Of a stretch of DNA of 40,851 bases, positions 2,697 through 36,554 are shown piece after piece (the stretch's first letter is position 1; every line of letters starts with the position of its first letter). Where the stretch lies: IMG/VR virus record IMGVR_UViG_2541047691_000017; one strand, given 5' to 3'. The DNA comes from a virus. Lineage: Duplodnaviria; Heunggongvirae; Uroviricota; Caudoviricetes. A model generated the notes under the pieces. It was given only the letters and a program-made list of their open reading frames with translations. It searched no databases and was not told the origin of the DNA. The position numbers and the translations under genes were made by a program.

Positions 2697-3087
2697 CGTC
2701 TTTTCTCCCCGGAATTAACTCGCGTGGATTATCGGAACGGTGATAGAGCCATATACCAATACGCACAGCGACAATTGCTGACACGAATGCGCCTGCAGAG
2801 AAAACAATCCCTTTTTCAAAAGAGTCCTGCGTGATGGTAGGGATCAGGCTGGCTATGCCGATAAGAATTGATGCTGCTGGTTTGTAAAAGAGAAGGCCGC
2901 AAAGAAAGCTGAGCATCGACAGGAGCACCCGGCGACGGATGGGGTACTCTACTGCAGAGGTAACAAAAATTACCGCCCCAGCCAAAGCCCCTAAAGCAAC
3001 CTCCGGAGGGACACCTGCAATAACTGCAGCAAGAGAACCAAAACTAAGCAACTGATTTAATTGCTCACTTGTTACTTGAGCAGACAT
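2683..3087 (-). CDS. Holin-like membrane protein (first of pair)
   Basis: 134 aa, several hydrophobic helices; RBS AGGAG before ATG at 3085-3087; first gene of the lysis cassette. Confidence 0.5.
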   Translation of the reverse strand: MSAQVTSEQLNQLLSFGSLAAVIAGVPPEVALGALAGAVIFVTSAVEYPIRRRVLLSMLSFLCGLLFYKPAASILIGIASLIPTITQDSFEKGIVFSAGAFVSAIVAVRIGIWLYHRSDNPRELIPGRKDDGNA

Positions 3088-3367
3088 ACTTTCTCCTGTT
3101 TACTATCTATAAGCCAGTCAATTATTGATGACTAAACCCGCATAGTAAACCATATATGAATCATTATTGTTCCATATCATATATCTCAATAAAAGTACTA
3201 ATGATTTTACAGAACGAGCCAGCAGAGTGGGGGCAGTTGTACAGGAACCATAGACTTAATTTTGTATTTAATAATGCTATGGTGTAATAAACCTGAACAT
3301 GTATTTAAAATACGTACTGATTCATGATAGAATTCAAAGATAACTTTTCACCAACCCGTTTTTGATA

Positions 3368-3394
3368 CCCGCAATATTTTGCGGGCTTTTTTTT
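3368..3394 (+). terminator. Plus-strand intrinsic terminator abutting the tailspike stop codon
   Basis: Stem CCCGCAA/TTGCGGG, loop TATT, then T8; the U-tract is on the plus strand only, so it is not a canonical terminator for the minus-strand tailspike. Confidence 0.4.
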
Positions 3395-6300
3395 AACGTT
3401 CTTCCAGAGACTGAACCCGCTCTTTTATCTTATCCATTTCTCTGCGCTGCCATGCTGCCTCGATATAGAATAAGAGATCAGGTCTGACCCCCCATCTAGA
3501 TCCTGCTGGCGTTATTTCAACGCGCTCAATGATGTCTTCTATTACCATCACTGGATTATCATCCTCATCAACAATGATGCTCCCGTCATTATCAGTCAGC
3601 GGCATTTCCCTTTGGCCAGTAATGACGTCATCATATACTGCGGGATAATCGTCATAGCAAAGAAAGGCATAGCGGCATGTTGTGCTTTCTTCTTCCATGA
3701 GTCCGTGAGAAATAAGAACATCACGAAGTTGCTGCGCGATTACACCATGATGTATCCTCGCCCCTTCTTCCCCCTTTATAGCGACAGCGTTCAGCCATTT
3801 ATAAGCGATATACCTGACGTCACCCCAGGCATCCAGCAATGCTTCGTCAGGAGAGACCGGCTCTGTCTTTAATGTTCCGTCACTGGTAACCACAGGATTG
3901 GAGCCAAGATAAACTGTCGAGAACCTGTTTCCCGGACCACCAAGAGCATTTACATTATCAAGATAAGGTTTAACATCTCCGTTCTCAAAAAGATGTTCGA
4001 GTGCGTTATATACCGCGCGACGTGGAGTACTGCTTCCGGAACCATGCAACGTTATCATTGCACCATCTGCTGAAGACGTTGTTTCACCGCCGCTAACGAT
4101 TAATCTCTGAGCGGTAACATCATCAGACGGTACTTTCTTCGCAATAATGGCGTAATTACCCTCAAGTTTGACTTCCGCGCGAACTTGTCCTGATGTACCT
4201 GCATGGACAGTCAGTGACTGGACGGCAACATCATCTGTGAAATCAACGGGTACAGGAACCGTCCTCACGCCTGACGTCGACATAAAAGTAGGAAGCGTTC
4301 TGTTAGGAGTGGCTCCGTAGACAAAATCCCTTGAAACAAATTCTTCCTGTTTAATTTTCACCCTGAAACAATACAAATCAGCCGGGTGACCATCGTGAAC
4401 ATAAGGATATTTTCTGTTGTTATCCCCTATGCTCCATGGGTTTAGAAAGTCTTCCCCACCGAAAATGTAGTACAGCCAGTTGTCTTTGATACAAACTGAA
4501 CCAACACCAACCGCAGAGTTAACTATTCCGCCCTGATAAATCTGATCAGTAACATTAACCCACTCTACATTATCCAGACTCCACTCATTGACGTTAACTC
4601 TGGTCATAAATGTTCTTGGATAATTTCCTGCATAACGGTTATCAGGTTCTCCTCCTTCCCACTCACCAAATGCGCGCTCACTGCCAAAAATAATCAGCTC
4701 ATCGCCAACTTTGGCAAAAGGAAGGTTTGAGTGATGAACATTATTTGGGAAGCGAAGAGAATTCCATGATGTACCTAAATCAGAGCTTCTGTGCAATGAA
4801 CTACCGGGTTGAGTACTTAATGTCCCCCTGGTCGTCAGATACAGAATGCCATCATAATATTTTACACATGGCTCAGATGCATTCGCCTCATATTCTGCAG
4901 GTATGCGTCTGCGAACAAAGCTACCAGGAGAACCGAAAGCATCAGAGAAATAGAGTATCCCAAGCTCGCGTGGACCAATATCACCATTATGGTAGCCAAC
5001 AGCAAAACTGTTATCGCTAATCGTCGCAAAACTGTGAATCTCAGTAACAGGAGTGCTTCCGTCAACAAAAGAAGGAATAGTTCCAAGACTGGTTTTTCTC
5101 CATGGTGACGAGTGAAATGATGTACCAAAACTCCAGTATCTACCCTCGTTATTCTGATCCACATCCTGGGTATTTTGCGTCGTAACTGTAAAAGTATTTT
5201 TATCAATAACAGTAGTCACCGTCATATTCCCGGTAACACCTGTAACACCAGAGTTTGAGAAGTTGACAAAATCACCAGCAAATAATCCGTGATCAGTAAT
5301 GCGAATATAAGCGACTTGCTGATTTGCTGCTTTCGTTATACCACCATAAACGCGAAGGCTGCGACTCATTGGGCGATCCCACAACTCTGCAACCTGCAGT
5401 TTATTTCCGCTCACGGTCCGCGTCTCAATTACAGCAAAAAGGCGATTTCTGACAACCCCCATACTCATGCAGTGATAGTTAACTGTGGGATAGTTTTCAT
5501 GTAAATCTGTAAGCCATTCCGGCGTTGTCCAGGTCTTCCCGTCATCTCCTGAGCGAACCCATGCAACATGGAGGTTATTTACACCATGGCGGTCTCCAGC
5601 CATAAAAGGCGCATAGATGACATTGTCATATACAAACGTTTTATCCTGCGTCCAGGCGTTGTACCACGGTGTATCTGTAATTTTAAATAACTCTCCCTGG
5701 ATAAAATCTTCAGAAGCATAAAAAAGAGGCTGGCCCGGTATTCTCTCAAATAAAAAACGAGCATTTTTAAATCGACTGACATCCGGAAGAGTTGATACTT
5801 TAAAAGTAAGCCCTAATCCGTCAATTTTATAACCTGGAGATGAGGCTTCAAGGCACGCGCTTATTGCAGTGGAATCGTCATTTATACCATCACCAACAGC
5901 TCCAAAATCTTTGGGGCTAATAGCATCACGCATTTTATCCTGGAACGTTCGGTACACAGCCCCAGAACCATACTGAATAAACCAACCAAAACCACCAACA
6001 ACCCCGGAGATTGCAGCATCGACATAATTACGCATTGAGCGATTATTTACAGCGTCCTGCTCAAATGATGGATCTGCAAGGTTAGAAATTTTGTTTTGCT
6101 TTGCATCGTAATATTTTGCAAGCAAAGATGGTTTCATCAATGCACGTCTGAACCACCCAAAACATTGCTGGATCAGCATCGTCAGGTAGTCAAAGGCATC
6201 TTCATGCACTTCGGGGAAAAATTTTCCCTGATTGCGAAGGTCTGTCTCCTGCACTACATCAAGCACACGATCTATCGTAATTCGCCATCCAGTAGCAAGC

Positions 6301-6512
6301 GGAGACGGAAGAACCACAGAACCGCCACTATAAGTGCCCGCCCCAGTTACCGTATAACCGGTATCCAGAACCAATTCTGTTACGTTTCCGTTCAGGTCAG
6401 ACACCTGAACAACCAGGTCTGATTTTCTGAAAACTCGAAAAGTATACGGAAACGATGTCGTAACGCCGTTACCGGTGTATTCGTTGTGGTCAACTTCGGT
6501 TGAGACCGTCAT
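3393..6512 (-). CDS. Tailspike/tail fiber: T7 gp17-like N-terminal adaptor, central domain with two Asp-box motifs, C-terminal intramolecular-chaperone (peptidase S74-like) domain
   Basis: 1039 aa. N-terminus (NEYTGNGVTTSFPYTFRVF...VVQV...LVLDTGYTV) fits the T7-type tail fiber adaptor pattern. Asp boxes SGDDGKTW (5529..5552) and SSDLGTSW (4764..4787) checked against the DNA. C-terminal roughly 160 aa resemble the autocleaving chaperone of endosialidase-type tailspikes, candidate cleavage near VVTS/DGTLK. All from memory. Confidence 0.85.
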   Translation of the reverse strand: MTVSTEVDHNEYTGNGVTTSFPYTFRVFRKSDLVVQVSDLNGNVTELVLDTGYTVTGAGTYSGGSVVLPSPLATGWRITIDRVLDVVQETDLRNQGKFFPEVHEDAFDYLTMLIQQCFGWFRRALMKPSLLAKYYDAKQNKISNLADPSFEQDAVNNRSMRNYVDAAISGVVGGFGWFIQYGSGAVYRTFQDKMRDAISPKDFGAVGDGINDDSTAISACLEASSPGYKIDGLGLTFKVSTLPDVSRFKNARFLFERIPGQPLFYASEDFIQGELFKITDTPWYNAWTQDKTFVYDNVIYAPFMAGDRHGVNNLHVAWVRSGDDGKTWTTPEWLTDLHENYPTVNYHCMSMGVVRNRLFAVIETRTVSGNKLQVAELWDRPMSRSLRVYGGITKAANQQVAYIRITDHGLFAGDFVNFSNSGVTGVTGNMTVTTVIDKNTFTVTTQNTQDVDQNNEGRYWSFGTSFHSSPWRKTSLGTIPSFVDGSTPVTEIHSFATISDNSFAVGYHNGDIGPRELGILYFSDAFGSPGSFVRRRIPAEYEANASEPCVKYYDGILYLTTRGTLSTQPGSSLHRSSDLGTSWNSLRFPNNVHHSNLPFAKVGDELIIFGSERAFGEWEGGEPDNRYAGNYPRTFMTRVNVNEWSLDNVEWVNVTDQIYQGGIVNSAVGVGSVCIKDNWLYYIFGGEDFLNPWSIGDNNRKYPYVHDGHPADLYCFRVKIKQEEFVSRDFVYGATPNRTLPTFMSTSGVRTVPVPVDFTDDVAVQSLTVHAGTSGQVRAEVKLEGNYAIIAKKVPSDDVTAQRLIVSGGETTSSADGAMITLHGSGSSTPRRAVYNALEHLFENGDVKPYLDNVNALGGPGNRFSTVYLGSNPVVTSDGTLKTEPVSPDEALLDAWGDVRYIAYKWLNAVAIKGEEGARIHHGVIAQQLRDVLISHGLMEEESTTCRYAFLCYDDYPAVYDDVITGQREMPLTDNDGSIIVDEDDNPVMVIEDIIERVEITPAGSRWGVRPDLLFYIEAAWQRREMDKIKERVQSLEER

Positions 6513-6616
6513 GTTAAATCTCCAGATAGTCGCAGCACCCGTTGCGCCGCATATCTGGTTATTCTATTACCTGGAAAACCACATATGGATAGAAAGGCTG
6601 TAAATACGAATAGATA

Positions 6617-6631
6617 TTACCTTTCAGGTAA
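6617..6631. promoter_or_regulatory. Operator-like palindrome TTACC-TTTCA-GGTAA
   Basis: Exact TTACC-N5-GGTAA; upstream of the LexA box and the 6708 gene. Confidence 0.6.
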
Positions 6632-6668
6632 TTTGCAAAACGTGCTGGATAGCAAACAAATTATTTGC

Positions 6669-6688
6669 TACTGTATAAATATACAGTT
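6669..6688. promoter_or_regulatory. LexA box (SOS box)
   Basis: TACTGTATAAATATACAGTT matches the CTGT-N8-ACAG consensus (TACTGTATATATATACAGTA) at 18 of 20 positions; lies 20 nt upstream of ATG 6708. Confidence 0.75.
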
Positions 6689-6707
6689 ATTGCATGGAGA
6701 AGATAAG

Positions 6708-6965
6708 ATGCAGCAGTATCACTATCCACTGGAAGACGGATTTACCGAAAGGATTCACACGCCGGGAGGCGTCAGGTCACTGGTGGAGGGATCGCACTTG
6801 ATGAAATTACTCCGGGATCTCGATAAGGATGGATTTAATGTCGATGGCCCACTTGCCGAACTGACTGCACTGATTAACTACGTCACCAGCTCACAGATGT
6901 CTATGCAGGATCTGCAAACACATCTCGACTATTGTGCCGAACAATTACGAAAACAAACCAGATAA
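6708..6965 (+). CDS. Small antirepressor-like protein, standalone paralog of the antirepressor C-terminal domain
   Basis: 85 aa from ATG 6708 (MQQYHYP...). Aligns by eye with the C-terminus of the 7283..7933 product (IHTPGGV..SHLMKLL..DG.NVDGPLAELT..Y...DLQTH vs IHSPSGV..SLLMNLL..DGHDVSGAAAELT..Y...DIQTH). The longer listed ORF start at 6585 would place the LexA box inside the coding region. Confidence 0.6.
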   Translation: MQQYHYPLEDGFTERIHTPGGVRSLVEGSHLMKLLRDLDKDGFNVDGPLAELTALINYVTSSQMSMQDLQTHLDYCAEQLRKQTR

Positions 6966-6996
6966 GATTTGAAATTACCAAGTGGAGTGCTTATGT

Positions 6997-7011
6997 TTAC
7001 CTTTGAGGTAA
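6997..7011. promoter_or_regulatory. Operator-like palindrome TTACC-TTTGA-GGTAA
   Basis: Exact TTACC-N5-GGTAA between the 6708 gene and the antirepressor gene. Confidence 0.55.
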
Positions 7012-7101
7012 ATTTACATCGCACTCCTCTTGTGCCATAGTAATCGGGCACTGGCAAAATCCAGTGCCGGGATTGGTCTCCCGGATTACTAAGTGGCGCA
7101 T

Positions 7102-7124
7102 ACCACGCCAGACGTGGTTTTTTT
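7102..7124 (+). terminator. Weak intrinsic terminator
   Basis: Stem ACCACG/CGTGGT around a 5-nt loop followed by T7; downstream of the 6708..6965 gene. Confidence 0.3.
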
Positions 7125-7282
7125 ATGCGTATAGCACAGTCATGCCAGAATTATGGTGGGCTGAATGGGGGTCCGAAAGGACGCCGGTACCACTTAGGCC
7201 GGTAAGACCAACTCCGTTCAGTTCACCACCATCTGATTGGTCTCAGCGGTGGTGATGTAATTCGCTAAGTGGAGACGCCATA

Positions 7283-7933
7283 ATGAACGCTCAACTCATC
7301 CCCGTATTCAACGGCACTATATCCAACGAAACCGCTCTTCTCGTTAATGCCCGTGATTTACACACTTTCCTCGATGTGGGTAAGCGATTTGCTTCGTGGA
7401 TTGTCGAACGAATTTCTGAATATGGTTTCGTTGAAAATCAAGACTTTATGATTATTTCCCAAGTTCGGGAAAAAATAGGCAGAGGCCGTCCTGCAAAAGA
7501 CTACCACCTCACCCTCGATACAGCCAAAGAGCTGGCGATGGTCGAGCGTAACGAAAAAGGTCGTCAGGTACGACGCTACTTCATTGAATGCGAGAAACGT
7601 TTAAGACAACAAGAAACAAAAGTGGAGAAGGTCTTGTCAGGCTTCATGCCCGCCATTATGGAGGCGATCAAGCTGGAAGACAAAAAAGAATACAGTGCCC
7701 CACTGAAGCCCGGCTACCGTAGCCTGATTCATTCGCCGTCTGGTGTTCTCGGCCTGACGGAGAACTCACTGCTGATGAATCTGCTGAACCAGTTACAGGA
7801 CGACGGGCACGACGTATCGGGCGCGGCGGCGGAGCTGACCACCATGTTCTGCTACATCGTCGGTGTGAGCAAATGCCTGCGTGATATCCAGACCCACGCG
7901 GAGTACATCAACGACAAGGCAGGGTTCTTCTGA
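7283..7933 (+). CDS. Phage antirepressor (AntA/AntB-type N-terminal domain plus C-terminal domain)
   Basis: 216 aa; N-terminus (ARDLHTFLDVGKRFASWIVERISEYGFVENQDFMI) fits the AntA/AntB antirepressor domain pattern from memory; RBS GGAG before ATG. Confidence 0.7.
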   Translation: MNAQLIPVFNGTISNETALLVNARDLHTFLDVGKRFASWIVERISEYGFVENQDFMIISQVREKIGRGRPAKDYHLTLDTAKELAMVERNEKGRQVRRYFIECEKRLRQQETKVEKVLSGFMPAIMEAIKLEDKKEYSAPLKPGYRSLIHSPSGVLGLTENSLLMNLLNQLQDDGHDVSGAAAELTTMFCYIVGVSKCLRDIQTHAEYINDKAGFF

Positions 7934-7999: not shown

Positions 8000-8014
8000 T
8001 TACCTTAAAGGTAA
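8000..8014. promoter_or_regulatory. Operator-like palindrome TTACC-TTAAA-GGTAA upstream of the 8041 cassette
   Basis: Exact TTACC-N5-GGTAA, 26 nt upstream of ATG 8041 and before its AGGAGG RBS. Confidence 0.55.
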
Positions 8015-8040
8015 ACCATGGGTTTACATGAGGAGGAGAT

Positions 8041-8250
8041 ATGGGATTTTGGTTCGCTCGTACAAAAACGAGGGATAATGCACCCAGCCCTCAGGCAAAA
8101 AATGCAGAAGTTCCGGCGTCAGCGCAGGTTAACAAGCGTGGTGGAGTATATATCTCATCACAGCAAATTTCTGAGCTTCCTGAGGTTAAGGAGATGCGTC
8201 GTCTCGCTGCTGCAATTGTTAAACAGGATCTTGCCACTGTAAGGAAATAG
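8041..8250 (+). CDS. Small hydrophilic protein of unknown function, first gene of accessory cassette
   Basis: 69 aa; strong RBS (AGGAGG) before ATG 8041; stop TAG overlaps the GTG start of the next gene (TAGTG). Confidence 0.55.
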   Translation: MGFWFARTKTRDNAPSPQAKNAEVPASAQVNKRGGVYISSQQISELPEVKEMRRLAAAIVKQDLATVRK

Positions 8251-9116
8251 TGTTGTTAGCTCTTCTAATTATCCCCATTCTGGTTAGTGGTTATATTATG
8301 ATAACCGCTAACCAGTATCATTATTTCCGTTTATACCGACATGAAGGCCAGCTTCTTTATATGAAAGTAGCTGCATTAGGTACATATTGCCTTGTTGCAT
8401 CAGTAATAATTGCAGCCGCTATAAAATATAAATGGCCTGATTTTCACCTAGTTCACGATATGGTGGAAACTTTTAATGTAACATCAAAACCAGAAACAGA
8501 TAGAATTTACATGTGGCTGCTTCTTCTCTCAGCCACATCCATTTGCTTCTCTTTGTGTTATGTGTCTGTTGTGTGGGTGAAAGATTTTCTTCTTGGTTGT
8601 TTTTATAAACGTGATATTTACGAGCAAAAAACAGAGGCAATGAAGGCCAGAGTACTGCGAAAAACTTACTCGCAAGGTTCTTTAGACTTACTATTGCTTG
8701 ATGCTATTGAATCGGATCCTAAACGACCAATGTTGATTACTTTATCATCAAACAAAGTGTATGTTGGAATAATAAATGGTTCTGGTGAACCAACGGAAAA
8801 TCAGGGTCCGCATCAGCACATATCTTTTGTTCCTTTAATGTCAGGATACAGGAACAAAGAAAACTTATCTGTCACATTCACTAATGCTTATCCAGGAGAA
8901 ATACAGGTCAAGCGGACTGCAGCAATAAGAGGAATTAGCAGAAAGAAAGTGCTAGGACTTGAGATCATGGTGTCTATTGACGAAATAAGTTATATATCAT
9001 GGTTTGATTTTGAAGTATATAAAGCAACAAATAACAAAGTAGAATCCAGGGGGCACGTTATTCGTGTTACCAAAAATGGAAGAAATATATATCAAAGAAA
9101 TAGCAAAAAAGAATAG
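8250..9116 (+). CDS. Membrane-anchored protein of unknown function (three predicted N-terminal TM helices, about 170-aa soluble C-terminal domain)
   Basis: 288 aa; GTG start with AAGGA RBS 5-6 nt upstream, translationally coupled to 8041..8250; markedly AT-rich relative to neighbours; followed by a strong terminator. Confidence 0.6.
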   Translation: MLLALLIIPILVSGYIMITANQYHYFRLYRHEGQLLYMKVAALGTYCLVASVIIAAAIKYKWPDFHLVHDMVETFNVTSKPETDRIYMWLLLLSATSICFSLCYVSVVWVKDFLLGCFYKRDIYEQKTEAMKARVLRKTYSQGSLDLLLLDAIESDPKRPMLITLSSNKVYVGIINGSGEPTENQGPHQHISFVPLMSGYRNKENLSVTFTNAYPGEIQVKRTAAIRGISRKKVLGLEIMVSIDEISYISWFDFEVYKATNNKVESRGHVIRVTKNGRNIYQRNSKKE

Positions 9117-9136
9117 CCCGCGCTGCGGGCTTTTTT
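9116..9136 (+). terminator. Strong rho-independent terminator after the accessory cassette
   Basis: Stem GCCCGC/GCGGGC with 3-nt loop, then T6, immediately after stop codon 9114-9116. Confidence 0.75.
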
Positions 9137-9208
9137 GTGGACGAAACAAAAGTCAGTGCTACACTCATTGACGCCACATTGAGGTGGCTTATAGATGGAA
9201 ATGTCACA

Positions 9209-9370
9209 ATGAAAAAAGCATTTGCTGCACTGTTCGTTTTGTTGTCTCTGGTAGCTTCAACTCAGGCCTTTGCCGGTCGTTGTCAGCACGACAGCGACAC
9301 TGCTGCTGACGGCTCACGCTGCGGTGGGCGTTCTGCGGATTCCCGCCCAGGCGGCGGTGGCATTCGTTAA
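9209..9370 (+). CDS. Small secreted Cys-containing protein (53 aa)
   Basis: ATG 9209 gives MKKAFAALFVLLSLVASTQAFA signal peptide then a Gly/Ser/Asp-rich 31-aa mature peptide with Cys residues; the longer six-frame ORF start at 9137 lacks support. Confidence 0.4.
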   Translation: MKKAFAALFVLLSLVASTQAFAGRCQHDSDTAADGSRCGGRSADSRPGGGGIR

Positions 9371-9393
9371 AAACAAGGCCGCGAAAGCGGCCT

Positions 9394-9405
9394 GTGACAT
9401 GTCAC
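9394..9405. repeat. Palindrome GTGACATGTCAC, copy 1 of 3
   Basis: Perfect 12-bp palindrome; its TCA is the stop codon (reverse strand TGA) of the 9402..9698 gene; preceded by hairpin GGCCGC-GAAA-GCGGCC. Confidence 0.7.
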
Positions 9406-9698
9406 GTCCCTTTTCTGAATGATAGCCATTCGAAAAATGATGACATTCCACCGCAGACAATAGCAAAGATGATCCCACCAAAGAAGAGAAGGCCAGCCTG
9501 CCACCACTCCCACCGCCATACATCCACAGCGCCAACCATACCAACAATCGCTCCAACAAATGGAATATAGCTCACGATGAAAGCAATGGGGGCTGCAATT
9601 ATCCAGTGCAATCCCCACCATGATTCAAGCCCAGCCATAATTGCTGCCAACTGAAAAAGACCAACGACGATATAAACAATGAATCCTATAGCTTGCAT
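9402..9698 (-). CDS. Small inner-membrane protein (3 TM helices), unknown function
   Basis: Start at ATG 9696-9698 with RBS AGGTGA; about 98 aa, almost entirely hydrophobic helices; convergent with the 9209 gene. Confidence 0.5.
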   Translation of the reverse strand: MQAIGFIVYIVVGLFQLAAIMAGLESWWGLHWIIAAPIAFIVSYIPFVGAIVGMVGAVDVWRWEWWQAGLLFFGGIIFAIVCGGMSSFFEWLSFRKGT

Positions 9699-9894
9699 GT
9701 AGTCACCTAATTTACCCAGTAAAAATAAGAGGCCTCCCCTCAATAAGGCTTGCAACAAGAACTACTCCCTGCACAACAAAGATGAACCAGCAAATAGCTT
9801 GAGTCTGAGGGTTAAGAAAATATTTGTAGCGGTCAATAAATAACAATCCACCAGAAATTATCACACTCAAAATAATTAAAAACACAACACTTCC

Positions 9895-26300: not shown

Positions 26301-26377
26301 GTGGCATTAGCTCAGTTGGACAGAGCAACCGCCTTCTAAGCGGTTGGTCGCAGGTTCGAATCCTGCATGCCACGCCA
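26301..26377 (+). tRNA. tRNA-Arg (anticodon UCU), argU-like
   Basis: 77 nt folded by hand: 7-bp acceptor stem GTGGCAT/ATGCCAC, D-arm GCTC/GAGC, anticodon stem ACCGC/GCGGT with loop CTTCTAA (anticodon TCT), T-arm GCAGG-TTCGAAT-CCTGC, encoded CCA. Confidence 0.9.
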
Positions 26378-32002: not shown

Positions 32003-32017
32003 TTACCCCTGAGGTAA
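32003..32017. promoter_or_regulatory. Operator-like palindrome TTACC-CCTGA-GGTAA
   Basis: Exact TTACC-N5-GGTAA, 4 nt upstream of the start codon of the 31652..31999 gene. Confidence 0.5.
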
Positions 32018-32064
32018 TTAAAAACCACATAAGACAAGAAATCAATAGATTTTAGAATATTTTA

Positions 32065-32079
32065 TTACCTCATAGGTAA
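32065..32079. promoter_or_regulatory. Operator-like palindrome TTACC-TCATA-GGTAA
   Basis: Exact TTACC-N5-GGTAA in the intergenic region downstream of the P-like gene. Confidence 0.5.
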
Positions 32080-32917: not shown

Positions 32918-33714
32918 GCTTCAGGGCTGTTCCAGTGCGGAACGTTGTTATCAGGTAATGTTGATTGCTTCTGTCTGCTAATCTGCAGCCGCCTTGCCAG
33001 CTTCTGCTCCCACTGTGCCTGATGGTATGCCTTACCCTCAGCCATCCAGTAAATTCTGAACTCTGCAAGTTCCTGTGCCGTTGGCAGACTGTCCAGGTAG
33101 ATCCCCTGCAATGAGCTTTTCCGAAGAAAGTCATCTGATGGCTGCCATTGTTCATGCATGACAAATTTGCCTAATTGCCCTGGCCCACCAGGAGGAACAA
33201 AGTTATTCATCACGGCGTTGTTTGCGCCGGGGTCATGAGGCACAGAATCCCCGGTTTTTGTCCTGCTCTCCCTCTCTTGGTTAAATGACTGGTTATATGA
33301 CTGGTTCTGGATCCCGTTTTTGGGATCATTCAACATCCCGTTTTTGGGATCATTCAACATCCCGTTTTTGGGTATATTCCCGCTTTCGGTAACATTACCG
33401 TTTTCGGGTTCATTGCCCCCCTCCCGGTTGCCTTTAATGTTCCCGTTTTTGGTTATATTAAGAGAGAAAACCCGCACTCTTTTTGTCGCTCCCTTTCTCT
33501 CTCCGGTATCTGAAATAAGCCCCATTTTCATGAGCGATATAAGCCCGGCCTGCACGGTTTTTTTATTCAGGCAAGTGTCTTTAACGAGGCGTTCTATGCT
33601 GGGGTAGCATAGGTTATATTCATCGGCTCTGTCAGCCATCGAGAGCAGTATGAGCTTTAATGACGAGCTACCTGGATCTGTCTCCCAGGCCCAATCTGTT
33701 GCATGTCTGCTCAT
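32899..33714 (-). CDS. Replication initiator, lambda O-like, with internal iteron-encoded peptide repeats
   Basis: 271 aa; N-terminal HTH-type domain; central PKNGMLND repeats encoded by the DNA iterons; immediately upstream of the P-like gene. Confidence 0.7.
   Translation of the reverse strand: MSRHATDWAWETDPGSSSLKLILLSMADRADEYNLCYPSIERLVKDTCLNKKTVQAGLISLMKMGLISDTGERKGATKRVRVFSLNITKNGNIKGNREGGNEPENGNVTESGNIPKNGMLNDPKNGMLNDPKNGIQNQSYNQSFNQERESRTKTGDSVPHDPGANNAVMNNFVPPGGPGQLGKFVMHEQWQPSDDFLRKSSLQGIYLDSLPTAQELAEFRIYWMAEGKAYHQAQWEQKLARRLQISRQKQSTLPDNNVPHWNSPEAWEDFL
33312..33459. repeat. Iterons (putative origin of replication) inside the O-like gene
   Basis: Two perfect 24-bp tandem copies TCCCGTTTTTGGGATCATTCAACA (33312-33359) followed by four or more degenerate units with core CCGTTTT(T/C)GG. 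Confidence 0.7.
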
Positions 33715-34395: not shown

Positions 34396-34410
34396 TTACC
34401 TGTTGGGTAA
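34396..34410. promoter_or_regulatory. Operator site 3 (TTACC-TGTTG-GGTAA)
   Basis: Exact TTACC-N5-GGTAA, 56 nt upstream of the repressor start codon. Confidence 0.6.
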
Positions 34411-34465: not shown

Positions 34466-35050
34466 ATGAAAAGTATCCAGGACGTCCGCAGGCAAAATCT
34501 CAACGACTTGATCGACCGTGAATTCAATGGTGTTCAGACGCGGATGGCAGAAAAACTTGGAACTCAGGCAAATCTGGTAAACCGCTGGGCTCTTGGCAAG
34601 AAGGTTATCGGCGACCAGGTTGCGCGAAAAATTGAAGCTGCCGCCAATAAACCCCGTAACTGGCTTGATATCGATCGCTCGCTTTCTCAGGAAGGTTTTC
34701 AGCCTGTCGGCCCAAGCGACATTGGCCAGCTGGCGGCTCACAACCTGGAACGCTGGATGAGCGAAAGCCGCGACCTTTCAACACAGGGAAAACTTCACCG
34801 CGCATCCGGCGTCGCCCAGGTGACAATCAGCCGCCTGTTAAACAATGAGGTCAGCGTTTCCATTTCCACCCTGGAGAATGTTGCATCCGCATTCGGGCGT
34901 CACGGCTATGAATTACTGATTCACCCGCACGACCCTGCGACCATCAACTATGACCGCTCGCGCTACGCATTGTTACCCGAAACCGAGAAAGCAAAGATCG
35001 AAAGTTACATTGAATTTGTCATCAACCAGAACGAAAAAAACAAACAATAA
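34466..35050 (+). CDS. Prophage repressor candidate: tandem-HTH (two XRE-type HTH domains) protein without an autocleavage domain
   Basis: 194 aa; HTH-like segments TRMAEKLGTQANLVNRWALGKK and ASGVAQVTISRLLNNEVSVSISTL; no Ala-Gly / Ser-Lys peptidase S24 module seen; divergent from Cro-like gene. Confidence 0.6.
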   Translation: MKSIQDVRRQNLNDLIDREFNGVQTRMAEKLGTQANLVNRWALGKKVIGDQVARKIEAAANKPRNWLDIDRSLSQEGFQPVGPSDIGQLAAHNLERWMSESRDLSTQGKLHRASGVAQVTISRLLNNEVSVSISTLENVASAFGRHGYELLIHPHDPATINYDRSRYALLPETEKAKIESYIEFVINQNEKNKQ

Positions 35051-35107: not shown

Positions 35108-35122
35108 TTACCTAATGGGTAA
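35108..35122. promoter_or_regulatory. Operator-like palindrome TTACC-TAATG-GGTAA (OL-like)
   Basis: Exact TTACC-N5-GGTAA upstream of the early-operon promoter. Confidence 0.55.
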
Positions 35123-35141
35123 TTTTTTTAACTCATATCTA

Positions 35142-35184
35142 TTGACATCAAACCAAATACGCATAATTATTACCTAAACGGTAA
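35142..35184 (+). promoter_or_regulatory. Putative early promoter (-35 TTGACA at 35142-35147) with overlapping operator TTACC-TAAAC-GGTAA (35170..35184)
   Basis: TTGACA followed by AT-rich -10 candidates and an exact operator palindrome; precedes the rightward recombination operon (pL-like position). Confidence 0.55.
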
Positions 35185-35658: not shown

Positions 35659-36554
35659 TGCGGAACGCTGGAATCATGGATAGAACAAAATACATCGGAG
35701 GAAGCGATGTTGCAGGGATTCTTGGAGTTAGCCCATGGCGCACCCCGCTTGAGGTTTATCTGGATAAGGTCCAGCCACGTGTCAAACCAGTAGACCCAAG
35801 CAAGCAGAAAGTTTTCACGCGTGGCCAGCGTATGGAGCCATACGTAATAGACCTGCTTTCTGAGGAAACAGGGATGGAAATCGTTCATCGCGGAAACCGC
35901 TATATCCACCGTGATTACGATTTTATTGCAGCTGAGATCGATGCAGAAGCAGCGTCAGGCGAGAACATTGAGATCAAAACAGTTAGTCCGTTCAAAGCCA
36001 AAGAATGGGGAGAAATCCAGACAGATGCAATTCCTGTGCATTACACGGCCCAGGCCATGCACGGGTTGATGGTTACAAACAAACAGGTATGCGTTTTCGG
36101 TGTGCTTATCGGTGGCGACGACTTCCGAATCTATCGGGTTGAGCGTGATGAAGAAACTATCCAGGCGATCTTAGAAAAAGAAATCGCTTTCTGGGACCGA
36201 GTGAAAAATCTTAACCCGCCGGAAGCTACCAGCGTAAGCGATGTATCGCTGATGTTTGAGAAAGATGCCGGGACAAGTATCGAGGCTGACGGAAAGGCAC
36301 TCGCACTATTCAACGATCTACGAGACATGAAGTCACGCAGAAAATCACTGGAAGAAGAAATAGCTATATCAGAAGAGAAGCTGAAGATGTACATGCAAGA
36401 GCACTCAGTCCTGACCCTGGACGGAAAGCCGCTCTGCACATGGAAATCTCAGATCAGCAACAGATTCGACCAGAAGCTATTCCAGTCAGTACACCCTGAG
36501 TTATTCGAAAAATTCAAAACAACAACGACACAACGCGTCTTCAGAATGAAGTAA
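35655..36554 (+). CDS. YqaJ/lambda-Exo-type recombination exonuclease
   Basis: 299 aa; N-terminal motif GGSDVAGILGVSPWRTPLEVYLDK typical of YqaJ-like viral recombinase exonucleases; immediately upstream of RecT. Confidence 0.75.
   Translation: MMRNAGIMDRTKYIGGSDVAGILGVSPWRTPLEVYLDKVQPRVKPVDPSKQKVFTRGQRMEPYVIDLLSEETGMEIVHRGNRYIHRDYDFIAAEIDAEAASGENIEIKTVSPFKAKEWGEIQTDAIPVHYTAQAMHGLMVTNKQVCVFGVLIGGDDFRIYRVERDEETIQAILEKEIAFWDRVKNLNPPEATSVSDVSLMFEKDAGTSIEADGKALALFNDLRDMKSRRKSLEEEIAISEEKLKMYMQEHSVLTLDGKPLCTWKSQISNRFDQKLFQSVHPELFEKFKTTTTQRVFRMK

Follow-up and report, generated by a model that had tools for sequence, protein, structure and literature searches.

Small and large antirepressor genes in an epsilon15-like prophage of E. 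coli: a putative LexA-controlled Ant and a candidate RNA-gated relative

How a temperate phage whose repressor carries no cleavage domain may respond to DNA damage, and why it should carry two genes that share one antirepressor-like domain, are the questions raised by this locus. The DNA analysed (40,851 nucleotides, referred to here as the window) belongs to an epsilon15-like (Uetakevirus) temperate podophage, a prophage of E. coli; a search of 5,426 complete E. coli genomes finds sequence similar to the region in 889, among them STEC and avian pathogenic strains. The initial annotation had described a small gene behind an SOS box as an unusual, separately controlled copy of the C-terminal domain of a full-length antirepressor. 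In our analysis the core formed by Ant, Rep and the LexA box appears to be the one already known from Salmonella phage SPC32H, with no part of it new, while the new detail appears to be the adjoining second antirepressor, in which a copy of the Ant domain stands behind an antisense-RNA gate. The features of the core are as follows.

6617..6631, no strand: O1, operator-type palindrome TTACCTTTCAGGTAA in the ant/tailspike intergenic region, upstream of the ant promoter
6646..6674, plus strand: putative ant promoter, TGGATA (6646..6651), 17-nt spacer, TACTGT (6669..6674)
6669..6688, no strand: LexA (SOS) box TACTGTATAAATATACAGTT, 18/20 match to the consensus, unique in the window
6708..6965, plus strand: ant, 85-aa small antirepressor, SPC32H Ant ortholog, with Shine-Dalgarno GGAG at 6696..6699 and ATG at 6708
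34466..35050, plus strand: rep, 194-aa repressor with two HTH-type regions and no S24 domain, matching 5D50 chain A

The ant product matches chain E of PDB entry 5D50 ('Anti-repressor protein') over residues 2–84 with an E value of 4.1e-47 (phmmer) and is about 88% identical to the SPC32H Ant. This chain was the only solved relative found in the PDB search with Ant; entries 5D50 and 5D4Z hold the SPC32H Rep/Ant structure (Kim et al. 2016). The Pfam and NCBIfam searches with Ant gave no significant family, only a sub-threshold match to DUF724, and PHROG 450 matches both the small Ant (9e-48) and the 216-aa protein encoded downstream of it (4.6e-36). More than 130 standalone Ant homologs of 85–86 aa were found in enterobacterial prophages; a word-indexed search of proteins with the small Ant as query retrieved close standalone homologs only and did not reach the fusion proteins, and the query with the C-terminal domain of the large protein gave 24 matches. 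Expression of the small Ant of SPC32H by itself reportedly induces the prophage. A longer reading of the gene, of 126 aa from position 6585, was rejected: it would start upstream of the LexA box, and both conservation and the 86-aa length of the crystallised SPC32H Ant favour the start at 6708. Gene callers often lengthen ant to this 126-aa frame, which spans its own LexA box. In nearly all records seen the small gene is labelled 'hypothetical protein', and PHROG 450 is listed as of unknown function. The practical value of the present assignment is mainly one of annotation, the unlabelled gene being the ortholog of a structurally solved antirepressor.

The partner of this protein can be named in the same way. 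Rep matches 5D50 chain A ('Repressor', the SPC32H Rep) end to end, over residues 1–190 (E 4e-42), at an overall identity to the SPC32H Rep of only about 42%. That the repressor lacks an autocleavage domain, as had been proposed, was borne out by profile searches, in which Pfam reported HTH_3 only, with no Peptidase_S24, and NCBIfam nothing further. The palindrome TTACCTnnnAGGTAA occurs, within one mismatch, in nine copies in the window against 0.04 expected; the copies lie on both sides of rep (34396..34410, 35108..35122 and 35170..35184) and before other operons, and the distribution in SPC32H is alike. We infer that this palindrome is the Rep operator. The O1-equivalent site is conserved in seven phages, is found upstream of ant in SPC32H and is annotated as a repressor binding site in the epsilon15 RefSeq record. 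In the window some 15 bp separate O1 from the likeliest ant –35 hexamer downstream of it. This is not where a classic occluding operator would be expected, and O1 may belong to the divergent tailspike gene instead.

The SOS box reported before the 85-aa frame was likewise found again. Set against the E. coli LexA consensus TACTGTATATATATACAGTA it has two mismatches in 20 positions, is the sole match at three or fewer mismatches in the 40.8-kb window (0 expected from 100 shuffles) and is also the sole A/T-rich CTGT-N8-ACAG site there. Its position is kept in seven epsilon15-like phages, the ant LexA box of SPC32H among them (alignment A1), and across the same alignment the hexamers TGGATA and TACTGT are invariant or nearly so. 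The –10 hexamer of the ant promoter would thus fall inside the LexA box; the promoter assignment is tentative because this pair is absent from the output of a simple promoter scan. Another candidate, a sigma-70 –35 hexamer TTGCAA flanking O1, was rejected, its –10 partner not being conserved in alignment A1.

These features place the locus next to a system for which experimental data exist. According to a passage in PMC7380047 that refers to Kim and Ryu 2013, synthesis of the SPC32H Ant follows LexA self-cleavage, and the protein inactivates the repressor by binding to it; a passage in PMC9638917 states that the tetrameric Ant splits the Rep tetramer. The likeness to SPC32H extends to the epsilon15-like genome, the position of ant beside the tailspike gene, the LexA box over the ant promoter, the upstream operator palindrome and a repressor from one family, bearing two HTH-type regions but no cleavage domain. 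SPC32H differs in having a terminator directly after ant and no second antirepressor, and a search with Rfam models found neither IsrK nor C4 in it. LexA control of ant and the binding of Ant to Rep are accordingly carried over to the window phage from its published ortholog and may be expected to hold there by analogy. The proposal that the prophage is induced by a LexA-derepressed antirepressor therefore gains support from the homology of Ant and Rep to the SPC32H pair, but the Gifsy-type and 186-type phages with which it had been compared share the logic and not the protein family. Tum of 186, GfoA and GftA of the Gifsy phages and AntC of N15 all combine a non-cleavable repressor with a small protein encoded outside the immunity region under a LexA box; the likeness of Ant to Tum, GfoA and GftA, judged from the Pfam, NCBIfam and PDB searches with Ant, is functional only, and the Ant tetramer also differs in stoichiometry from the A2B2 complex of GfoA and GfoR. 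Nor is the arrangement an oddity: because in SPC32H, too, ant is preceded by this operator palindrome and a LexA box, it is rather a group norm, and the palindrome, the LexA box and the small ant adjoining the tailspike gene form a conserved core of the whole epsilon15-like group. The closest analogue of the window system is that of SPC32H.

What sets the window apart from SPC32H lies 3' of ant, where a 318-nt spacer separates it from the gene for the 216-aa protein.

6997..7011, no strand: O2, operator-type palindrome TTACCTTTGAGGTAA, abutting the –35 hexamer of the IsrK promoter
7013..7041, plus strand: predicted IsrK promoter, TTTACA, 17-nt spacer, CATAGT, with an upstream TG, from the promoter scan; implied start near 7048
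7048..7124, plus strand: IsrK-type sRNA (Rfam), with decoys b1 (7073..7079, TTGGTCT) and a1 (7089..7096, CTAAGTGG) and a terminator at 7102..7124
7149..7233, plus strand: C4-type antisense RNA (Rfam RF01695), with loops a' (7190..7197, CCACTTAG) and b' (7205..7211, AGACCAA)
7237..7274, plus strand: C4 target sites b2 (7237..7243, TTGGTCT) and a2 (7265..7272, CTAAGTGG) in the leader of the large gene
7283..7933, plus strand: large antirepressor, 216 aa, with an AntA N-terminus and an Ant-like 'type B' C-terminus
7343..7552, plus strand: AntA domain, residues 21–90 (Pfam PF08346, 97.4 bits against a cutoff of 27)
7679..7924, plus strand: Ant-like 'type B' domain, approximately residues 133–214 (match to 5D50_E, E 9.5e-14)

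Rfam models place an IsrK sRNA and a C4-type antisense RNA in this spacer. The isrK model (RF01394) matches over its positions 1–77, terminator included, with 67.7 bits against a gathering score of 50, and the C4 model with 61.2 bits against 45; the c4-a1b1 motif (RF03163), which overlaps IsrK at 7035..7087, scores 39.9 bits and so stays below its gathering score of 46.7. The start implied by the predicted promoter coincides with position 1 of the isrK match, and folding of the region 6960..7290 gives z = –6.1. O2 stands directly 5' of the –35 hexamer TTTACA, and its distance from the 5' end of IsrK is 37 nt in the window and four relatives and 34 nt in phiV10 (six loci). In the window and five related loci both RNAs score above the Rfam gathering thresholds. 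The a' and b' loops are exactly complementary to a1/b1 and to a2/b2 over 7–9 nt, and a2 overlaps the Shine-Dalgarno sequence GGAG (7271..7274) of the large gene. Across six loci a', a1 and a2, as well as b', b1 and b2, covary in four specificity types, with a2 always on the large-gene Shine-Dalgarno sequence, and in phiV10/TL-2011b, in Tyrion and in the metagenomic locus L005 altered loops are accompanied by altered targets. The large gene thus appears to be neither LexA-controlled nor simply operator-controlled, and sits behind the IsrK/C4 cassette. The cassette is dispensable, being missing from PAS61.

The homology between the 85-aa protein and the C-terminal domain of the large one, reported earlier, is firm: BLASTP aligns the small Ant ungapped with residues 135–212 at 40% identity over 78 residues (E 7e-16), and the profile–profile comparison (hhalign) gives a probability of 99.7% and an E value of 2.5e-26. 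The direction that had been read into this paralogy is, however, reversed. The large gene is missing from SPC32H, epsilon15 and PAS61 and frameshifted in phiV10, and its N-terminal domain is exchanged between unrelated families, AntA in the window and Bro-N in phiV10, TL-2011b, Tyrion and ZX5; PHROG 377 spans the entire large protein and PHROG 450 its C-terminal domain. It is the large gene that is an optional fusion with a variable N-terminus, and the small Ant that is the ancestral and characterised unit of the pair. That the 85-aa protein should instead be an unusual, shortened version of the 'real' antirepressor, perhaps modulating it or acting as its dominant-negative partner, and stand under combined LexA and operator control, is most improbable: the paralogy is real and mixed tetramers of small and large proteins are possible, but the small gene is the universal, highly conserved and experimentally characterised antirepressor and is carried alone by several phages, while the large one is the variable and sometimes defective partner.

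Taken together, these observations make it probable, in our judgement, that the prophage has a two-part immunity system, in which an SOS-controlled Ant acts against a non-cleavable Rep and an IsrK/C4-gated second antirepressor is optionally added. What the window contributes to this reading is sequence evidence, namely the homologies together with the LexA box, the RNA families, the joint variation of the three sets of sites and the joint occurrence with Rep. In the proposed mechanism Rep, itself non-cleavable, would bind the palindromes scattered before most operons, and the host LexA would occupy the SOS box overlapping the ant promoter. DNA damage would remove LexA and allow the 85-aa Ant to be made, which would bind Rep and strip it off the DNA, so that the prophage is induced. 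From the second promoter, abutted by a putative Rep operator, the IsrK sRNA, then the C4-type RNA and then the second antirepressor would be expressed. Pairing of the C4 a' and b' loops with a2 and b2 at the Shine-Dalgarno sequence of the large gene would block its translation in the window phage, and IsrK, bearing a1 and b1, could act as a decoy or an activator. The large protein itself would consist of an exchangeable N-terminal domain and an Ant-like module that likely binds Rep.

The large gene appears to be an optional, RNA-gated second antirepressor of the type of P1 immI or Gifsy-1 IsrK. The c4 mechanism of P1 and P7 has been published (PMC12197685). Both there and in the window a C4-family RNA lies between an upstream a1/b1 segment and a downstream a2/b2 segment covering the ribosome-binding site on the antirepressor side, loops and targets vary together between phages, and there are many scattered operators of the primary repressor, putative ones in the window; the operator-type palindrome at the predicted cassette promoter may be the counterpart of Op51 at P51, which is under C1 control. 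The differences are considerable. The immI region of P1 and P7 includes icd and ant1/2, whereas in the window no icd-like coupled upstream frame is found, only a 37-codon ORF (7142..7255) that overlaps C4 and stops 27 nt short of the large gene's ATG; here it is the Shine-Dalgarno sequence of the antirepressor itself that carries a2. The window antirepressor and P1 Ant are not related, a terminator closes the upstream a1/b1 segment, which thus forms a separate IsrK sRNA, and the phage is a podophage whose main route of induction would be the separate LexA-controlled Ant.

In the IsrK/orf45 (STnc1160)/AnrP locus of Gifsy-1, for which the IsrK mechanism has been published (Hershko-Shalev et al. 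2016, PMC4825925), the order of elements is the same: c4-a1b1/IsrK, C4 and an antirepressor gene, AnrP. There too a short ORF (orf45) overlaps C4, and read-through of the IsrK terminator is needed to reach the gene. The published model is one in which IsrK activates translation via orf45, rather than one in which C4 represses (PMC4825925). The antirepressors are not related: BLASTP of AnrP against the 216-aa protein gave no significant match, and AnrP has an ORF6N N-terminus where the window protein has AntA. No paralog of the AnrP C-terminus was found in Gifsy-1, including near its LexA box. We had considered paralogy between an SOS-controlled small and an RNA-gated large antirepressor as a general rule, and Gifsy-1 rejects it on both counts.

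The function of the large protein in the life of the phage can be read differently. It may be a weapon against the immunity of other prophages, of the P1/P7 or P22 immI kind, and not a second route of self-induction: an infecting phage would make the large protein before C4 accumulates and so inactivate the Rep of a related resident prophage, the C4 of which would block the large protein only where the a'/b' specificities agree. The window, phiV10, phiv142-3, ZX5 and others share a 100% identical Rep (the PAS61 Rep is identical as well). The C4 loops and their targets differ, the loops being CCACTTAG and AGACCAA in the window and phiv142-3 against CCTTTTAG and ACGCCAA in phiV10 and TL-2011b; a pattern of this kind makes P1 and P7 heteroimmune. 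The phiV10 record names the gene 'putative anti-immunity protein'. The homologous RNA cassette of Gifsy-1, on the other hand, does induce its own resident prophage. We consider this alternative possible but somewhat improbable; it is compatible with the two-part system and partly overlaps with it.

An experimental result is available for a close relative of the large protein, ORF4 of phage vB_EcoP_ZX5, which has the same genomic position and a 97.6% identical C-terminal domain, occurs alongside an identical Rep and differs in carrying Bro-N where the window protein has AntA. Overexpression of ORF4 as a GST-tagged protein lowered the number of lysogens from 10^9 to 10^6, about 1000-fold (PMC9782041). 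The anti-repressor phenotype that we ascribe to the large protein is taken from this ortholog and may be considered probable for the window on that analogy; the fall in lysogeny frequency during infection also agrees with an anti-immunity role. The ZX5 paper uses neither of the terms LexA and SPC32H, and its passages on this result leave the small Ant and the RNA cassette unmentioned (PMC9782041).

It is unlikely that the Ant-like C-terminal domain merely oligomerises and that the large protein acts through AntA or Bro-N elsewhere and not on Rep. The fold can mediate self-association, as the SPC32H Ant tetramer indicates, and many proteins of unclear function contain Bro-N or AntA domains; the identity to Ant of just 40%, together with the tetrameric state of Ant, leaves room for such a role. 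Against it, the N-terminus is exchanged while the C-terminal domain is kept, and in the phage collection a Rep homolog is encoded in every record that has this domain: it occurs in 32 of 50,697 phage records, and the host breakdown and the listed accessions fall within the 37 records with a Rep homolog. The domain also diverges in step with Rep, the Rep and C-terminal-domain identities being 98–100% and 97–99% in E. coli phages, 78% and 79% in Tyrion and 45% and 54% in Klebsiella phages. In a natural chimera (P0137) the N-terminal half comes from a small Ant and the C-terminal half from a type B domain, and the overexpressed ORF4 of ZX5 shows the anti-repressor phenotype. These data suggest that the C-terminal domain is likely a Rep-binding module.

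If the two-part system is taken a step further, one Rep-binding fold may be deployed twice under independent sensors, LexA and the SOS response acting on the small Ant and the C4/IsrK gate on the domain-swapped fusion. We lean slightly against this extended reading, plausible as it is. Were it true, phages with 100% identical Rep but differing C4 loops would be heteroimmune in the manner of P1 and P7. No terminator separates ant from IsrK in the window, and for this reason ant transcripts made upon SOS induction would include the a1/b1 decoy in the 3' part, where it could titrate the C4 RNA and, in a feed-forward step, tie the second antirepressor to the SOS signal.

The biological interest of the locus is moderate and lies in the use of one repressor-binding fold in two settings, once by itself under putative SOS control and once as the part that stays constant, at the C-terminus, in a candidate RNA-gated antirepressor with exchangeable N-terminal domains. 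It offers a clean natural system in which to ask which domain of the Bro-N and AntA 'antirepressors' sets the target specificity, and whether RNA immunity of the P1 type operates in podophages. Because similar sequence is so frequent in E. coli genomes, those of pathogens included, the induction switch may also be relevant to prophage induction by DNA-damaging antibiotics.

A third palindrome lies downstream of the large gene.

8000..8014, no strand: O3, operator-type palindrome TTACCTTAAAGGTAA, ahead of accessory genes

The accessory genes at 8041..9370 lie 3' of O3, and PADLOC gave no matches among those at 8041..9758. The position equivalent to O3 is occupied by a palindrome in phiv142-3 and TL-2011b as well.

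The core of this locus is a switch that has already been characterised, present here as an ortholog of the Rep/Ant system of SPC32H. The window is an epsilon15-like (Uetakevirus) E. coli prophage, the nearest phage records being phiv142-3, HEMP4, ZX5, TL-2011b and phiV10. Among genomes, the nearest match comes from the avian strain BEN5202, with 99.0% identity across 91% of the query, and the neighbouring gene there carries the annotation endosialidase tailspike. Between the tailspike and virion genes of the window lies a plus-strand island in which a small gene, ant, is followed by a large antirepressor gene.

Features of the ant island and its flanks (position, strand where assigned, description)
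3393..6512, minus strand: tailspike gene
6617..6631: O1, perfect palindrome TTACCTTTCAGGTAA, the first element of the plus-strand island
6669..6688: LexA box TACTGTATAAATATACAGTT, 18 of 20 consensus positions
6708..6965, plus strand: ant, 85 codons, GGAG upstream
6997..7011: O2, second copy of the palindrome
7035..7087: C4 a1/b1 target motif (Rfam, 39.9 bits, under the gathering score of 46.7)
7048..7124: IsrK sRNA, ending in an intrinsic terminator (Rfam, 67.7 bits; gathering score 50)
7149..7233: C4 antisense RNA (Rfam, 61.2 bits; gathering score 45)
7283..7933: large antirepressor gene, 216 aa
8000..8014: O3, third palindrome of the island
From 9895, minus strand: virion genes

The initial annotation had described a near-consensus SOS box upstream of an 85-aa ORF resembling the C-terminal domain of the large antirepressor, together with a repressor having no recognisable autocleavage domain, and every element of this observation was confirmed. 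The LexA box is the only one in the window and had no match in 100 shuffles. The ant product aligns without gaps to residues 135–212 of the 216-aa product (40% identity, E 7e-16), it matches the C-terminus of the large protein at the profile level (hhalign probability 99.7%, E 2.5e-26), and PHROG 450 matches both proteins. The repressor gene (rep, 34466..35050) gave helix-turn-helix matches only, and no S24 domain was found in its product by profile search (Pfam, NCBIfam). The combination of LexA and phage operator at the small gene had been considered unusual; both elements are, however, conserved ahead of ant in all seven phages aligned, so that the arrangement is the norm for the group. The best-conserved promoter-like pair is TGGATA-17-TACTGT. 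If this is the promoter, its -10 hexamer falls within the LexA box, and O1 and the -35 hexamer downstream of it are about 15 bp apart, which makes the effect of O1 on ant uncertain. The Shine-Dalgarno sequence, conservation and a crystallised 86-aa ortholog all back the 85-aa start. Gene callers often lengthen ant to a 126-aa ORF (6585..6965) starting upstream of its own LexA box, as in the protein cluster P0003 with its 833 members. The family of the small Ant, PHROG 450, carries the label 'unknown function' despite a member with a solved structure and a published function, and no model for the family was found in Pfam or NCBIfam.

The 85-aa protein is an ortholog of the SPC32H 'Anti-repressor protein'. 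It matches chain E of PDB 5D50, the SPC32H Ant crystallised in complex with the repressor (E 4e-47), and the window repressor shows homology along its full length to chain A, the SPC32H Rep (E 4e-42). The SPC32H ant occupies the same place beside the tailspike gene; upstream of it come the same palindrome and a LexA box whose position in the alignment is also shared. Kim and Ryu in 2013 reportedly observed that Rep stays uncleaved during SOS and that a point mutation in the LexA box renders Ant constitutive. In all respects that can be judged from sequence, the small gene, the LexA box and Rep agree with the SPC32H system. One account of the published mechanism describes LexA self-cleavage leading to the production of Ant, which inactivates the repressor by protein–protein contact (PMC7380047), and another describes tetrameric Ant binding two Rep dimers and thereby splitting the Rep tetramer that binds DNA (PMC9638917). 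With Tum and GfoA the resemblance is one of function only.

The sequence TTACCTnnnAGGTAA, within one mismatch, occurs nine times in the window against 0.04 expected.

Palindromes in the window (start positions) and pairs with 62-bp spacing
6617, 6997, 8000: in the ant island
34396, 35108, 35170: on both sides of rep
25964, 32003, 32065: ahead of other operons
32003..32079, 35108..35184: pairs in the window
33604..33680, 35972..36048: pairs in SPC32H (L001)

Because of this excess, of the same distribution in SPC32H and of the epsilon15 RefSeq record, where the palindromes (including one upstream of gp19, the ant homolog) are annotated as repressor binding sites, the palindrome is very probably the Rep operator. 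The paired sites start exactly 62 bp apart, or about six helical turns, both in the window and in SPC32H; such spacing would suit one Rep tetramer spanning two sites, in agreement with the published tetramer binding mode. O3 stands ahead of accessory genes at 8041..9370, which encode 69, 288 and 77 aa; a gene of 117 aa on the minus strand comes next. The accessory genes within 8000..9758 all belong to PHROGs of unknown function and gave no match in PADLOC, and the 288-aa protein has hydrophobic N-terminal segments; those behind O3 may be Rep-controlled morons or serve an exclusion function.

The evidence points to the large protein being a second antirepressor of modular build. At the N-terminus it has an AntA domain in the window and phiv142-3 and Bro-N in phiV10, TL-2011b, Tyrion and ZX5, the AntA-coding DNA being 80–83% identical to antirepressor genes found in Stx phages. 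All these phages keep the Ant-like domain at the C-terminus, with 97–99% identity among those of E. coli. The cassette is optional: SPC32H, epsilon15 and the E. coli phage PAS61 have the small ant only, the Rep of PAS61 being 100% identical to that of the window. The large gene of phiV10 (L007, 3279..3958) is frameshifted within the Ant-like domain and annotated as two ORFs; this cassette may be decaying.

Rather than providing oligomerisation only, which is the main alternative, the C-terminal domain is, we infer, a Rep-binding module. The Ant fold was found in 32 of 50,697 phage records and, judging by the host breakdown and listed accessions, these fall within the 37 that encode a Rep homolog. 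The divergence of the domain follows that of Rep (identities for Rep and the domain, respectively: 98–100% and 97–99% in E. coli phages, 78% and 79% in Tyrion, 45% and 54% in Klebsiella phages). ZX5 has a Rep identical to that of the window and a C-terminal domain 97.6% identical; overexpression of its large protein brought the lysogens down from 10^9 to 10^6 and also decreased repressor transcripts (PMC9782041). The terms LexA and SPC32H are absent from that paper, and its relevant passages mention neither the small Ant nor the RNAs (PMC9782041). The metagenomic 84-aa protein P0137 is a natural chimera of an N-terminal half from the small SOS-type Ant and a C-terminal half from the fusion-type domain, which indicates recombination between the two paralog lineages. 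Paralogy between SOS-controlled and RNA-gated antirepressors was rejected as a general rule, since in Gifsy-1 none was found between the former and the C-terminus of the latter. Standalone 95-aa proteins of the fusion type, 62–65% identical to the C-terminal domain of the window protein, occur in three loci from Klebsiella and relatives (L002-L004, 5665..6873), with an AlpA-like gene on one side and a HicAB pair on the other; the setting is a prophage remnant near citrate synthase or, in L003, the edge of an epsilon15-like prophage.

The 318-nt spacer between ant and the large gene holds RNA elements that the initial annotation had missed, IsrK and C4, and the segment as a whole folds strongly (z = -6.1). 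The C4 recognition loop a', CCACTTAG (7190..7197), is the exact complement of CTAAGTGG, which is present in IsrK (7089..7096) and again in the large-gene leader (7265..7272), where it overlaps the Shine-Dalgarno GGAG (7271..7274). Loop b', AGACCAA (7205..7211), likewise has two complements, TTGGTCT at 7073..7079 in IsrK and at 7237..7243 in the leader. The loops of phiV10/TL-2011b, Tyrion and a metagenomic relative have other sequences, and their target sites are altered to match, the sole exception being a single mismatch at the a1 (IsrK) site of Tyrion; the a2 (leader) site lies on the ribosome-binding site in every phage compared. Three-way covariation of this kind is the hallmark of the c4 mechanism of P1/P7. 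There, antisense RNA shuts off the ribosome-binding site that precedes the antirepressor gene, and heteroimmunity arises where the loops differ (PMC12197685). Gifsy-1 has the same RNA cassette ahead of its antirepressor AnrP, and IsrK there switches on both the translation of AnrP and the induction of the prophage (PMC4825925). The spacer agrees with the C4 and IsrK families in its RNAs but has no icd, and the large protein is related neither to P1 Ant nor to AnrP. O2 directly adjoins the -35 hexamer predicted for IsrK; its distance to the 5' end of IsrK is 37 nt in the window and in four relatives, and 34 nt in phiV10. This position may be likened to that of Op51 in P1. In the window no terminator was found downstream of the ant stop codon before that of IsrK, unlike SPC32H, where one directly follows ant; SOS-driven transcripts should therefore carry the a1/b1 decoy, and it may be speculated that this could couple the two antirepressor routes. 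In phiV10 (L007) the IsrK promoter region differs, with loss of the -35 TTTACA. TL-2011b (L008) carries about 0.9 kb of extra DNA with an additional operator palindrome between ant and the IsrK cassette (2988..4076) and, further downstream (6931..6998), a segment that scores 44.8 bits for the sar antisense RNA of P22 (gathering score 43).

In the lysogen, Rep would most probably occupy the scattered operators while LexA holds ant off and the C4 RNA prevents the large gene from being translated. With LexA removed by DNA damage, Ant would accumulate and strip Rep from the DNA. The RNA-gated gene would offer a second input, either a different induction signal, as in Gifsy-1, or an anti-immunity function in superinfection, as in P1, P7 and P22. 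The occurrence of identical Rep with different C4 loops among the phages favours a role in heteroimmunity. The part comprising the small gene, LexA box and Rep is already known from SPC32H. The deployment of one repressor-binding fold twice, combined in a podophage with an RNA gate of the P1 type, appears to have no description in the literature searched, and gives the locus moderate, not high, interest.

The 1039-aa tailspike resembles an endosialidase (K1 capsule depolymerase) and has a C-terminal chaperone-like segment; its counterpart in the near-identical BEN5202 prophage is annotated with an endosialidase catalytic domain. Relatives of the window share the N-terminal adaptor of this protein and have quite different tailspikes. 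A tRNA-Arg gene (anticodon TCT, 26301..26377) is located near the start of the late region, as it is in SPC32H.
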